Source of the DNA: a virus
Lineage: Duplodnaviria > Heunggongvirae > Uroviricota > Caudoviricetes
Virus record (IMG/VR): IMGVR_UViG_2695420651_000007
Direction: 5' to 3' (one strand)
Length of the DNA: 23,056 nt
The notes below the pieces were generated by a model. That model saw only the letters and a list, made by a program, of their open reading frames with translations. It did no database searches and was not told where the DNA came from. This document shows positions 1-23,056 of the stretch, piece after piece; the first letter of the stretch is position 1, and every line of letters begins with the position of its first letter. The position numbers and the translations under genes are program-made.

Positions 1-100
1 GGCAGAAGCAGAAAAAGCTTATTATGCTTCCATCAGAAACGATGATCTGGCAGCCTGAGTTCACAGATAAAACACTCTCCAGGAAAACCGGGGCGGTTCA
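1..100 (+). mobile_element. IS3-family insertion sequence (IS629/IS1203-like), right-terminal ~100 bp; element continues beyond the window start
   Basis: Reverse complement of 74-100 is TGAACCGCCCCGGTTTTCCTGGAGAGT, an imperfect inverted copy of TGAACCGCCCCGGGAATCCTGGAGACT at 22974-23000. A short plus-strand reading frame ending at a TGA at 56-58 is consistent with the 3' end of a transposase orfB. Confidence 0.6.
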
Positions 101-2755
101 TATCGATTTCATCATGGTTGCCTGCGCCAGGATTTTCGCCATATCTGACAGCACAGAAGAGGTGAAGGATTTGAAATTGAGTTTGCCGGTAGTGACAAAA
201 GTTGCCAGGCCATTTCCCATGTTGCTGAAGGCTGACGAGAACACCTGTTCTGCTGTTTCTGCCGTATTATCTGCATCCACGGTAAAATCCTGAAATGCAC
301 GCAGGACTCCGTTTTTCCAGTTACCCTGTACAACTTCAAGCTGTTGCCAGTAACGGCGATTCTCATTCAGTTGTCGGTTCAGGCTCTCCGTCAGCGCCTG
401 CTCGGCCTTTCTGTAGTCATCCGTGTTATATGTCCCTTTCTGCTCACTATCCCGCCTCAACTGCTCCAGCTGTTGCTGGTATTTCTGGCGAAGACTCAGT
501 TGTACCTGATATCGCTGTCGCTGCTGATCACCCATACCCACCGTGGCGATATCCAGGTCATGTTGCTGACGCTGAGCGCGCTCTTCTTCAGCCAGTTGAC
601 TGGTCAGCTGAATTGTTTTTTTCTTCAGCTCGTTGAGTGCCGTCTGTTTCTGAAGCTCCTGCTGTTTTACATCCAGCAGCGTCAGTGCCTGAATCAGTTC
701 ATCTTTACGGGCCAGCACACTCTTTTCATCTGCCGTCAGTTTTTTCCCGTCCAGGTCGCTGATGCGCTGCTGCAGAGCCAGAAGCTGTTTATGCGCTTCT
801 GTCATCCTTTCCGTGGCAATGCCTGCTGACTGTCTGGCAGCAGCAATCTGTCCTTCCACCTGTGCCTGTTGCTGACTGTACTGCAGCAATAACCGGGTGG
901 CCTCATCATTACGGGGTTCGCGTGTTTTTTTCTTACCGGATGCCAGGGCTTTCTCGTAACGTTCATTTTCACGTTGTATCGCCGCATCCCTGACAGCCTG
1001 ATCGGCGTACTGCATGGCATTAATACGCGCTATTTCACGCTGATGTCGTGCTGCTTCCGTTTCATTCATCCGGTTCAGTGCAGCATTTTCAGCATTACGG
1101 CGTTTCTGTTGCTCCTGATAATTCCGCTCTGCCTGCTCTTTTGCATCCTGCAAATCCTTCTGGCGTTTTTTCTCCTGAAGATCGTTAAGACGCTGCTGAT
1201 CGTATTCAACCTGAGAAGATGATGCCGTCCAGGGGAGTCTTTTCGCCCGCGACACTTTCTCCTGTAAAGCGGCAATCTGTTCATCCAGCGAGTCTTCACG
1301 ACCAATATTCATGGCCGCATCCCAGAAACGACTCCACAAATCAGACAGATACTTCAGCGTACTGCCAAGCGCATTGAGGTTATTATCAATATCCGCAGTA
1401 CGCCGACCGGTTTCCTCTGCCAGTGCAGACATGGCTATCCGTGCAGCATCACTGGACCGCCCCTGCTCCCCAAGGACGCGTATCTGCTCAAGCTGAGTGG
1501 CAGTAAGAAAATGCAGCTCATTGTCCAGAGCCTTCGCGGCATTTACAGGATCATCCTTCAGCCGCTTAAACTGATTTATGGTATCGCTGACCGACTGGCC
1601 AACCGATCGCTCCATCTGTGCGGCAGCTCTCGCCACCATACCGATATCGTTTCCACGAAATGCACCACTCCCCACCACCTGAGCCAGCGCACCGGCTGCA
1701 GCATGTTGCGTGATACCATTCCCGGAAATAGCACGACTGAGCGTCCACAGCTGCCCGGCAGTGACTCCGGCATAATGCCCCGTCAGCGACAGCTGGCGGT
1801 TAAATTCTTCCCCCTCCTTCTGACCGTCATACCAGGCTTTACCCAGACCATAGACAGCCGCGGCAATACCGCCAATAACCGCTCCTGGCATCATGCCTTT
1901 CGGTGACATCAGTGTGTCTATCCACCCGGCACGGTTAGCCAGCGTTATTCCGGATCCCCTCAGCGCACCTAAATTACCGCGGGCCAGTTCACCTATCAGA
2001 ACGCCTATCTCCTGACGGGCTGCTGCACTTTTCAGACCCAGCGAATGCGTGGCTTTTCCTGCCTGCTCCATTTTGCGGATATACACTTCTGCAGCACTGC
2101 TTACCCCCAGCTGGGCAGCCTTAGCACGAAGCAACTCAGAAGAAGAAAGATTCTGGCGGGTTGCCTGCTCTTTAAGCTGACGGATAAACGCCACTTTCTG
2201 TCGGGTAGCCTCTTCCTCAGCCTGTGTAAGAACACGGGTTTTCGCCGTAACCTCAGAAATCAGCGCCAGATAATCCTGCTGACCAATCCCGCCACTGTTT
2301 CTGGCCTGTCGGATCTGTTGCTGAATACGCTGTAATTCCTGCAGCCCCGCACCGGCCTGTTTCACACTGTCAATCTGACGATAAAACGCAGCAGCCGCTT
2401 TATCCTGAGCCTCCGCCAGAGCCATGGCCTGCGCCTGTTCCTCGCGCATTTTCTGGCTCAGTGCCTCCATACGCTGGCGGGTTTGCTCCACCTCGCGGGC
2501 CATGCGTTCATGAGCCTGTGCGCTCTTCTCCACCGTCTGCGCATGGACGGATGCGGCTGTTGCAGCCGAAGAAGCCGCCTGCATTGTCTGCCGGGCGGCC
2601 TGAGTCTGACGCTCCATAAAACGCTGCATACGGGCAGAAGACCGTTCTGCATCGCTGGCTGCACCATTCAGAAGGTTTTTGATACGGGGAATTTCATTTT
2701 TAAACTCTGCCGCATCAATCCCCAAATCAATGACCAGGTTGGCTATCTGGTCCAT
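98..2755 (-). CDS. H: Tail tape measure protein (lambda gpH-like); 3' end apparently truncated, the stop codon is the terminal TGA of the IS
   Basis: 885-aa coiled-coil-rich ORF. N-terminus (MDQIANLVIDLGIDAAEF) and C-terminal motif (SSVLSDMAKILAQA) resemble lambda H. Start ATG at 2755 is preceded by GGAGGTG. ORF stops at 98-100, which is the IS inverted-repeat terminus. Confidence 0.8.
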   Translation of the reverse strand: MDQIANLVIDLGIDAAEFKNEIPRIKNLLNGAASDAERSSARMQRFMERQTQAARQTMQAASSAATAASVHAQTVEKSAQAHERMAREVEQTRQRMEALSQKMREEQAQAMALAEAQDKAAAAFYRQIDSVKQAGAGLQELQRIQQQIRQARNSGGIGQQDYLALISEVTAKTRVLTQAEEEATRQKVAFIRQLKEQATRQNLSSSELLRAKAAQLGVSSAAEVYIRKMEQAGKATHSLGLKSAAARQEIGVLIGELARGNLGALRGSGITLANRAGWIDTLMSPKGMMPGAVIGGIAAAVYGLGKAWYDGQKEGEEFNRQLSLTGHYAGVTAGQLWTLSRAISGNGITQHAAAGALAQVVGSGAFRGNDIGMVARAAAQMERSVGQSVSDTINQFKRLKDDPVNAAKALDNELHFLTATQLEQIRVLGEQGRSSDAARIAMSALAEETGRRTADIDNNLNALGSTLKYLSDLWSRFWDAAMNIGREDSLDEQIAALQEKVSRAKRLPWTASSSQVEYDQQRLNDLQEKKRQKDLQDAKEQAERNYQEQQKRRNAENAALNRMNETEAARHQREIARINAMQYADQAVRDAAIQRENERYEKALASGKKKTREPRNDEATRLLLQYSQQQAQVEGQIAAARQSAGIATERMTEAHKQLLALQQRISDLDGKKLTADEKSVLARKDELIQALTLLDVKQQELQKQTALNELKKKTIQLTSQLAEEERAQRQQHDLDIATVGMGDQQRQRYQVQLSLRQKYQQQLEQLRRDSEQKGTYNTDDYRKAEQALTESLNRQLNENRRYWQQLEVVQGNWKNGVLRAFQDFTVDADNTAETAEQVFSSAFSNMGNGLATFVTTGKLNFKSFTSSVLSDMAKILAQATMMKSI

Positions 2756-3077
2756 AACGCACACCTCCGGAAATACCTTCCCCAAGATGCATCAGTTCTT
2801 CGTCCGTTCGCTCCGGTATCCCGTTCTCTTCCGGTAAAAGGCTGAAATCAGCCACCGCAGCATCACTGCTACCGGACACCATTCTCACGATCAATGCCTT
2901 CAGCGAGGCAAACTGCGCATCCATCCACACATCACTGAAGCTCTGCATCCGGAAATAATCGCCCCACTCACCAAGCTCAGTGGCCGACATTTCCGACAGC
3001 ATCCGCCGCCAGTCTGCCCGCCGGAACTCCCGGGCAAGCCGCATGACAAACTGCATTTCCCGCGTCAGGACTTTTCC
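2727..3077 (-). CDS. T: Tail assembly chaperone, T-like extension expressed as a G-T fusion by -1 programmed frameshift
   Basis: ORF in the -1 frame relative to G, open from the GGAAAAG heptamer (3071-3077) two codons before the G stop. Lies between the G-like and H-like genes as in lambda. Confidence 0.6.
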   Translation of the reverse strand, partial: GKVLTREMQFVMRLAREFRRADWRRMLSEMSATELGEWGDYFRMQSFSDVWMDAQFASLKALIVRMVSGSSDAAVADFSLLPEENGIPERTDEELMHLGEGISGGVRYGPDSQPGH

Positions 3078-3451
3078 GGCGTCAGCACCTCATGCTCCAA
3101 ATCCCCGGCATTCTCAATGGCTCCCATACCGCTCAGCGACAGAACCATCTCCGCCCCCGCTCCCAGGGCATCATACGACCATGTTGTAATAACGGATGCG
3201 CAAAGCGTCTCAACATCCTGAGACTGTTCCGCATTCCACAGTGAGCGGGAAACCAGCCAGGCATTGATATCCATCCCCATCCGCAGAAAAGCAATCTGTC
3301 GTTCAGCCTCCGGCAGTTCTCCCTCTTCGGCATCAAACTTTGCCGTTCGCTGCTGAACAAACGCCAGATATTCAATTCTCTGCAGCCCGGACAGCTCACT
3401 GAGCACCACGGACTGCTTTTCATAATTAAACGTGCCCTGTTTCAGAAACAT
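3065..3451 (-). CDS. G: Tail assembly chaperone (lambda gpG-like)
   Basis: MFLKQ...VLSELSGLQRIEYLAF resembles lambda G (MFLK...TLSELSALQRIEHLAL). GGTGGAGA lies 6 nt upstream of the ATG at 3451. Confidence 0.8.
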   Translation of the reverse strand: MFLKQGTFNYEKQSVVLSELSGLQRIEYLAFVQQRTAKFDAEEGELPEAERQIAFLRMGMDINAWLVSRSLWNAEQSQDVETLCASVITTWSYDALGAGAEMVLSLSGMGAIENAGDLEHEVLTPEKS

Positions 3452-3467
3452 CATGTTCTCCACCTGC

Positions 3468-22679: not shown

Positions 22680-22764
22680 TTCTTAAGATTTCCAATAGTG
22701 AATAGTTAGTTGAAAGGTATGCGTGGAAACGCATATGGCCTTAGTTGGTCAGATATCTTGGGGC

Positions 22765-22810
22765 TCGCTTTTCAGCGACGTAGGACGAATGTCCGTTGTT
22801 ACAAAGAGCG
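22765..22810 (-). promoter_or_regulatory. nutR-like site (boxA CGCTCTTTG plus boxB hairpin with GAAAA loop)
   Basis: Minus strand has CGCTCTTT (22810-22803) followed by the hairpin UCGCUGAAAAGCGA (22778-22765), between cro and cII. Confidence 0.45.
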
Positions 22811-22820
22811 GCTCCGCTTA

Positions 22821-22973
22821 TTAAGCGGCTTTGTGCTCCGGCGGGAACACGTCATCAAGACTTACTTTTGCGCCTAACTTGTTTAGACACGCAACAAGAG
22901 CACGGCATGTTTTAAGGTCTGGGAAGCGACGACCAGATTCCCAATGTCCGATAGCTCCCTGTGTGCATCCAAC
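22821..22973 (-). pseudogene. cro: cro-like XRE-family repressor, 5'-truncated by the IS insertion
   Basis: Open frame without a start codon running from the IS boundary: ...QGAIGHWESGRRFPDLKTCRALVACLNKLGAKVSLDDVFPPEHKAA has an XRE HTH helix-3-like pattern. Same strand as and directly upstream of cII. Confidence 0.5.
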
Positions 22974-23056
22974 TGAACCGCCCCGGGAATCCTGGAGACT
23001 AAACTCCCTGAGAAAGAGGTAAACAGGATGACTAAAAATACACGTTTTTCCCCCGA
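22974..23056 (+). mobile_element. IS3-family insertion sequence (IS629/IS1203-like), left end with inverted repeat and start of orfA; continues beyond the window
   Basis: TGAACCGCCCCGGGAATCCTGGAGACT begins at 22974. AAGAGG ribosome-binding site then ATG at 23028 encoding MTKNTRFSP..., recalled as the IS629 OrfA N-terminus. Confidence 0.7.

Follow-up and report, generated by a model that had tools for sequence, protein, structure and literature searches.

Two IS629-type ends on a prophage contig suggest simple insertions into the tape-measure and cro genes of an O55:H7-type lambdoid prophage

The stretch of DNA analyzed here (the window; 23,056 nt, IMG/VR record IMGVR_UViG_2695420651_000007, Caudoviricetes) carries part of a lambdoid prophage and begins and ends inside an insertion sequence (IS) of the IS629 type. 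This arrangement raises the question whether the two IS copies frame a unit that may be deleted or mobilized, or whether each is a simple insertion into a resident prophage. We consider it probable (about 0.8) that two simple insertions of complete IS629 copies, in the same orientation, into an O55:H7-type prophage account for the observed structure. The window is the whole of contig CYCH01000054.1 (23,056 bp) of the draft assembly GCA_001285725.1, and the fetched part of this contig (window 11823-23056) showed 0 differences. The window ends inside the IS because short-read assembly stops at a multicopy repeat; the IS bracketing is thus partly a property of the short-read contig and says nothing of what is beyond the repeats.

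IS629-type termini and the interrupted genes

At the two borders of the window the following features were annotated:

1..100, plus strand: IS629-type (IS3 family) 3' end with the last 18 orfB codons (2-55), the stop codon (56-58) and the right inverted repeat (IRR; 76-100); 0/100 mismatches to a complete 1310-bp copy
98..2755, minus strand: tail tape-measure gene (lambda H equivalent), cut to 885/1021 residues; Pfam TMP_2, TMP_4 and Tape_meas_lam_C, and Prokaryotic Genome Annotation Pipeline (PGAP) annotation of a relative
101..103, no strand: 3-bp target-site duplication (TAT) expected for the left IS, and also tape-measure codon I885; the second copy would be off the contig
22821..22973, minus strand: 3' remnant (codons 22-71) of a cro-like HTH_3 repressor gene, by alignment to relatives
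22971..22973, no strand: 3-bp target-site duplication (AAC) expected for the right IS, by comparison with the intact site
22974..23056, plus strand: IS629-type 5' end with the left inverted repeat (IRL; 22974-22998) and the orfA ATG at 23028; 0/83 mismatches to the complete copy

The 25-bp terminal repeat TGAACCGCCCCGGNNNTCCTGGAGA matched the window only twice, at 76-100 (minus strand) and 22974-22998 (plus strand), with 0 matches expected from 100 shuffles, and a repeat search of the window returned the same inverted pair. IRL and IRR agree at 22 of 25 positions and carry the TG...CA ends of IS629-type terminal repeats in the IS3 family. The window begins with the right end of one IS copy and closes with the left end of another, in which the 5' leader right of 22974 precedes the first nine codons of orfA (MTKNTRFSP). 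As the orfA start and the orfB stop are both read on the plus strand, the two IS ends lie in direct orientation. The original prediction, which saw opposite termini of the same IS3-family, IS629-type element in plus orientation at both window ends, is therefore borne out by the mismatch-free alignments.

The complete copy used as reference stems from the O157:H7 strain TR01 (block L018:391-1700), where it is flanked by a 3-bp duplication (GTC) and annotated by PGAP as an IS3 family transposase with programmed frameshift, its products carrying HTH_Tnp_1 and rve domains (Pfam). IS1203 and IS3411 are isoforms of IS629. The IS1203-annotated copy of strain F8492 has 2 mismatches to each window end and differs from the TR01 copy at 61 of 1310 positions, which fits IS629 subtypes that are 55-60 bp apart (Rump et al., PMC3271280). 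Judged by these alignments, the window copies belong to a non-IS1203 subtype of IS629. The 100-nt IS end was found without mismatch in 974 records, strains of O26, O103, O111, O121 and O145 among them.

Breakpoints were set by alignment to the uninterrupted prophage of the O55:H7 strain USDA5905. In the tape-measure gene, codons 1-885 are kept (2755 down to 101) and the TGA stop at 98-100 is provided by the last three bases of the IS; the Pfam match to Tape_meas_lam_C ends at residue 884 and the final 136 residues are gone. The uninterrupted site reads ...CAATCCCTTT/TATCGATTTC, with the slash marking the insertion point. At the other border, the IS lies between codons 21 and 22 of the cro-like gene, for which the uninterrupted site reads ...GCATCCAAC/TGCCTTAGC. 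The intact protein of 71 aa matches HTH_3 at residues 4-52 (E 4e-12), with the insertion point inside that match, and the IS parts the remnant from its start codon, from codons 1-21 and from the promoter side. In relatives, the 71-aa HTH_3 gene lies between cII and a divergent LexA-family (S24) repressor gene, the setting of a Cro-type repressor. The comparison with the intact prophage thus confirms that, as had been proposed, the IS cuts the tape-measure gene in its 3' part and cro in its 5' part, and places the cuts after codon 885 of 1021 and codon 21 of 71, respectively.

Target duplications of IS629 measure 3-4 bp (PMC3271280), and copies of this type make 3-bp duplications. Two simple insertions would give the outer junctions ...CAATCCCTTTTAT/TGAACCGCC... 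and ...GGCGGTTCA/AACTGCCTTAGC...; the strings ...CACTGCCAATCCCTTTTAT/TGAACCGCCCCGG... and ...CCGGGGCGGTTCA/AACTGCCTTAGCAAGTG... would then be expected elsewhere in GCA_001285725.1 or GCA_001284785.1.

The inner junctions recur in other assemblies, which shows that the insertions are real and heritable and not an artefact. The exact 885-aa truncated tape-measure product was found on 19 independent draft contigs (NCBI and Logan), each ending 25-108 nt into the IS; read sets with the tape-measure junction include ERR4504109, SRR17786831 and SRR21142933. A second assembly, GCA_001284785.1, has both junctions on the separate contigs CYAH01000050.1 and CYAH01000051.1. Neither inner junction was found in 5,426 complete E. 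coli genomes; coverage of either query stayed below 80% throughout.

Contig CYAH01000051.1 is identical to the window from 13809 through the cro-IS junction. To the left of that point it shows 33 substitutions in the lysis genes (compared with window 12569-13808), followed by KilA-N/ORF11CD3 genes that replace the terminase side; this divergence goes back either to an exchange with another prophage by recombination or to a cross-over of paralogous prophages during assembly. Chimeric open reading frames (ORFs) are common at the tape-measure gene in public assemblies, with the last 100-130 residues fused to unrelated phage proteins, among them tail protein T, ClpP protease and small terminase. 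These ORFs (P0005, P0007, P0014, P0024, P0026, P0027, P0043) probably arose by deletion, or as chimeras of paralogous prophages during assembly.

Simple insertions and competing explanations

We propose that the source is an E. coli that belongs to the O55:H7 lineage or is very close to it, and that the window holds the right-hand two thirds of a lambda-like prophage at ybhC. The multicopy IS629 probably transposed into it twice, after tape-measure codon 885 and after cro codon 21, and the assembler, unable to cross the repeat, broke off 100 nt into one copy and 83 nt into the other. Each insertion would be a loss-of-function lesion. Cro loses its start and the first helix region of the helix-turn-helix, and a 1.3-kb IS in cro, lying antisense to the rightward early promoter, would uncouple cII, O, P and Q from that promoter and block early-right expression on induction. 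The two direct 1.3-kb repeats could in addition serve RecA-mediated recombination or IEE-promoted excision and deletion, either of which could remove about 24.2 kb.

Several points weigh against this account. Of the two IS copies only 100 and 83 nt are visible; the contig does not reach far enough to show their full length, the target-site duplications or the outer flanks. The serotype suggested for the source isolate follows from its nearest relatives in sequence, the predicted polar effect on the early-right operon from gene order, and the presumed loss of tape-measure function from the missing last 136 residues. The outer junctions, moreover, were looked for with negative outcome. The partial product of the cro-IS fusion had no exact match on record, and exact look-ups of ten modelled partial products gave 0 in the collection; a homology search with the modelled fusion of IS end and tape-measure C-terminus returned only unrelated chimeras and partial tape-measure proteins; exact DNA scans of species-representative genomes and JGI metagenomes gave 0 hits. 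Such look-ups depend on how partial genes were called, and the collections hardly contain strains of this kind. The negatives are weak and provide no argument against simple insertion.

The missing outer junctions would also be expected if, next to real inner junctions, the outer prophage parts had been lost, inverted or relocated through recombination between IS copies or deletion beside one of them, i.e., the tail-tip genes and nle effectors on one side and cI-N-int on the other, leaving the segment as an isolated fragment. IS629-associated deletions are common in the lineage (PMC9943667, PMC3271280), and matching duplications were reported at just 21 of 47 IS629 sites in O157 genomes (PMC3271280). 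We nevertheless regard such a rearrangement as unlikely: nothing positive supports it, the failed look-ups hinge on partial gene calling and on collections nearly without such strains, and comparable insertions into the tape-measure gene and cII in complete genomes are simple, the gene continuing on the far side of the IS. IS1203-type copies break up the same tape-measure gene at another position in the O157:H7 strain 3-5-1 (L020:3785-5093) and cII, next to an identical cro, in the O157:H7 strain NE122 (L021:1507-2788). These two simple insertions indicate that IS629-type hits in these genes recur in the lineage; the IS1203-type copies in the small terminase, tape-measure and cII genes of O157:H7 strains point, with respect to the phage genes, in the same direction as the window copies. 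That the assembler joined IS termini to prophage ends at sites without any IS is conceivable for a short-read contig ending in a repeat, but is barely credible, since the junctions lie exactly at the terminal nucleotides of the IS, are seen again in another NCBI assembly as well as in Logan contigs built independently from other runs, and enclose an interior that is collinear with complete genomes at 99.95%.

The original prediction went further and described the two direct copies as a composite, recombination-prone unit whose content could be deleted, inverted or mobilized. Composite transposons are rare among IS3-family members. It is in our opinion highly improbable that the IS pair and the 22.9-kb segment form an active composite transposon, or the segment and one IS an excised circle, that spreads lpxR and phage genes. 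A single-IS circle would indeed be expected to show IRR at one contig end and IRL at the other, and direct IS repeats can generate such circles. On the other hand, neither junction occurs at any locus in the 5,426 complete E. coli genomes, so the segment has not been seen as a unit at more than one location; in relatives, the resident prophage, at its usual position, is collinear with the segment; and O and ori are frameshifted, so that a circle would not be maintained. Furthermore, IS3-family elements move as single-IS circles by copy-out-paste-in (bioRxiv 10.1101/2023.06.07.543989). The deletion half of the proposal was approached with a synthetic query of 2310 nt, consisting of 500 nt of the tape-measure 3' fragment, the IS and 500 nt of the cro 5' fragment. 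The predicted IS-IS deletion product was not found in the same set of genomes; the best coverage was 78%, and these partial matches are IS1203 copies at other tape-measure sites or in cII of a prophage of the same immunity. The IEE protein promotes IS629 excision and adjacent deletion in enterohemorrhagic E. coli (EHEC; PMC9943667), and a deletion of about 24.2 kb by IS-IS recombination is plausible in principle but was not observed. The claim of a composite or mobilizable unit is thus left unsupported, and composite mobility of the IS pair is speculation. The tape-measure junction is present in at least 19 public read sets or assemblies, and one might picture the paired insertions as a retained "prophage lock", in which the IS in cro severs the early-right operon and fixes an effector- and lpxR-bearing prophage in the chromosome while the IS pair acts as a switch for deleting 24 kb of structural genes; we hold this to be very doubtful. 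Two simple insertions of complete IS629 copies remain the preferred explanation.

Prophage type, additional lesions and gene content

Comparison of window 101-22975 with the O55:H7 strain USDA5905 gave a single piece of 22,882 columns at 99.95% identity, with 3 substitutions, one 1-nt indel and one 7-nt indel. The prophage of USDA5905 is limited by int and ybhC on one side, and by tail-fibre genes and nleB2, nleC and nleH1-1 on the other. Other O55:H7 genomes (DEC5A, CB9615 and more) matched at 99.9%, as did typical O157:H7 genomes, in the latter case over window 101-19986 only. The O157:H7 match stops at 19986 because the O157:H7 copy has lost the part from ninB to gam. We take the prophage to be of the Sp3/CP-933K type at ybhC (lambda att), a name used in the O157 literature; its late, lysis, nin and replication modules are collinear with this type, and the ybhC site itself, which lies outside the window, was read from the relative. 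O55:H7 is the progenitor lineage of O157:H7. The suggestion of an EHEC O157-like host was consequently close, but the nearest relatives are O55:H7 strains, typical O157:H7 carrying the version with ninE to bet deleted.

The IS copies are not the only lesions. In the gene for the fused protease and capsid protein, an amber codon (TAG, 6958-6960; Q334*) is present where the O157:H7 strain F8492 has CAG. This gene is a single open gene in F8492 and in the viable phage mEp460, and is marked by PGAP with an internal stop in the O55:H7 strains USDA5905 and DEC5A. An annotation artefact was considered for this internal stop and rejected, as mEp460 and F8492 have one open gene. In replication gene O, 7 nt are deleted between 21886 and 21887, at a tandem AAAAGAA in an A-rich tract just after the four ori iterons. 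The deletion frameshifts O into ORFs of 174 and 123 aa and is shared with DEC5A, in which PGAP marks the gene as frameshifted. Both the amber codon and the O frameshift are present in O55:H7 relatives free of the IS copies. Taken together, the IS lesions, the amber stop and the O frameshift probably make the prophage a locked remnant, and the earlier description of the prophage as defective holds on more grounds than the IS copies.

An identical 174-aa O fragment occurs in 37 blocks of the collection, in prophages of several immunity types (lambda-Cro, P22-Cro and HTH_3) and in metagenome contigs; the O/ori allele is either a recurrent slippage product or was spread by recombination. The window haplotype is mixed, combining USDA5905-like single-nucleotide polymorphisms in the nin region with the DEC5A-like O deletion. 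At position 9282 the window has one extra T compared with USDA5905 (L001:21182), in which the portal gene is annotated as frameshifted by PGAP; the extra base restores the frame, and the portal gene is intact as in DEC5A.

Between the interrupted genes, the prophage comprises the following features:

2727..5529, minus strand: tail assembly and tail tube genes (T, G, major tail V, U, Z, FII-like); PGAP of the collinear O55:H7 prophage and Pfam
5932..7959, minus strand: ClpP-like prohead protease/major capsid fusion gene with amber Q334*; comparison with F8492 and mEp460
7904-9412, minus strand: portal, intact; PGAP and Pfam
9412-9624, minus strand: small head protein; PGAP and Pfam
9621-11723, minus strand: large terminase; PGAP and Pfam
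11723-12214, minus strand: small terminase (DUF1441); PGAP and Pfam
13029..14205, minus strand: lysis cassette with Rz-like protein, lysozyme RrrD and class II holin; PGAP
16000..16689, minus strand: late antiterminator Q; PF06323
17164..18123, plus strand: LpxR-family lipid A deacylase gene (moron), opposite to the phage genes; Pfam LpxR (E 6.8e-40) and PGAP
18335..21458, minus strand: nin region (NinI phosphatase, NinG, NinF, NinE, NinB), ren and replication gene P; PGAP
21455..22347, minus strand: replication gene O with ori, frameshifted; alignment and PGAP of DEC5A
22380..22679, minus strand: cII; PGAP

Within 16704-18338, lpxR has ylcG/Q on one side and, on the other, the last 72 nt left (18267-18338) of a further antiterminator gene, which suggests that the lpxR moron came with, or replaced part of, a Q module. 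Two ORFs conserved in prophages (14348-14746, plus strand, 132 aa; 15071-15814, minus strand, 247 aa) had no Pfam match in a direct scan; for the 247-aa ORF, a precomputed table lists PF27470 TfpB. Rfam and tRNA scans of the window found nothing.

Significance and comparison with known systems

Events of this kind are already known and thoroughly documented (PMC3271280, PMC9943667), and the present one is biologically routine. Its importance beyond strain typing is small, as differences in IS629 sites are known variation in the O55:H7/O157:H7 lineage and IS629 is the reason why short-read assemblies of these genomes break up. The two sites, which are absent from the 5,426 complete genomes and present in several drafts, could nonetheless serve as lineage markers. 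For genome scans, the lesson is that IS termini at both ends of a window are the signature of a whole short-read contig, and that a composite structure needs long reads.

With composite transposons and IS deletion substrates, the locus shares two direct copies of one IS around a DNA segment; it differs in that no sign of movement as a unit was seen and the outer ends are out of view. The viable lambdoid phages mEp460, cdtI and phi458 have head, tail and terminase modules that are 96-98% identical to those of the window, with homologous tape-measure gene and protease-capsid fusion, whereas their protease-capsid gene is uninterrupted and, as annotated, they have a single tape-measure gene and no IS under the aligned region. 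Sp3/CP-933K and its O55:H7 counterpart resemble the window in gene order, in the lpxR moron and in the late genes. In contrast to the window, the typical O157:H7 copy is without the part from ninB to gam and has an IS1203 in the small terminase gene (L007:14919-16228), while the window copy retains the replication and immunity side up to cro and has IS629 in the tape-measure gene and cro.

The closest parallel to the insertions themselves is offered by IS629 in O157:H7 and O55:H7 prophages. In O157 genomes, 62% of the IS629 sites are in prophages (PMC3271280), and the O55:H7 strain CB9615 has only two IS629 copies, which are defective (Rump et al., PMC3271280). The two sites of the window are peculiar to it relative to the complete genomes, and its IS subtype is unlike the IS1203 typical of O157:H7; by contrast, its termini, identical to the 1310-bp copy, its TG...CA ends, its 25-bp imperfect repeats and its location within lambdoid prophage genes are those of IS629 insertions in O157:H7 and O55:H7 prophages.

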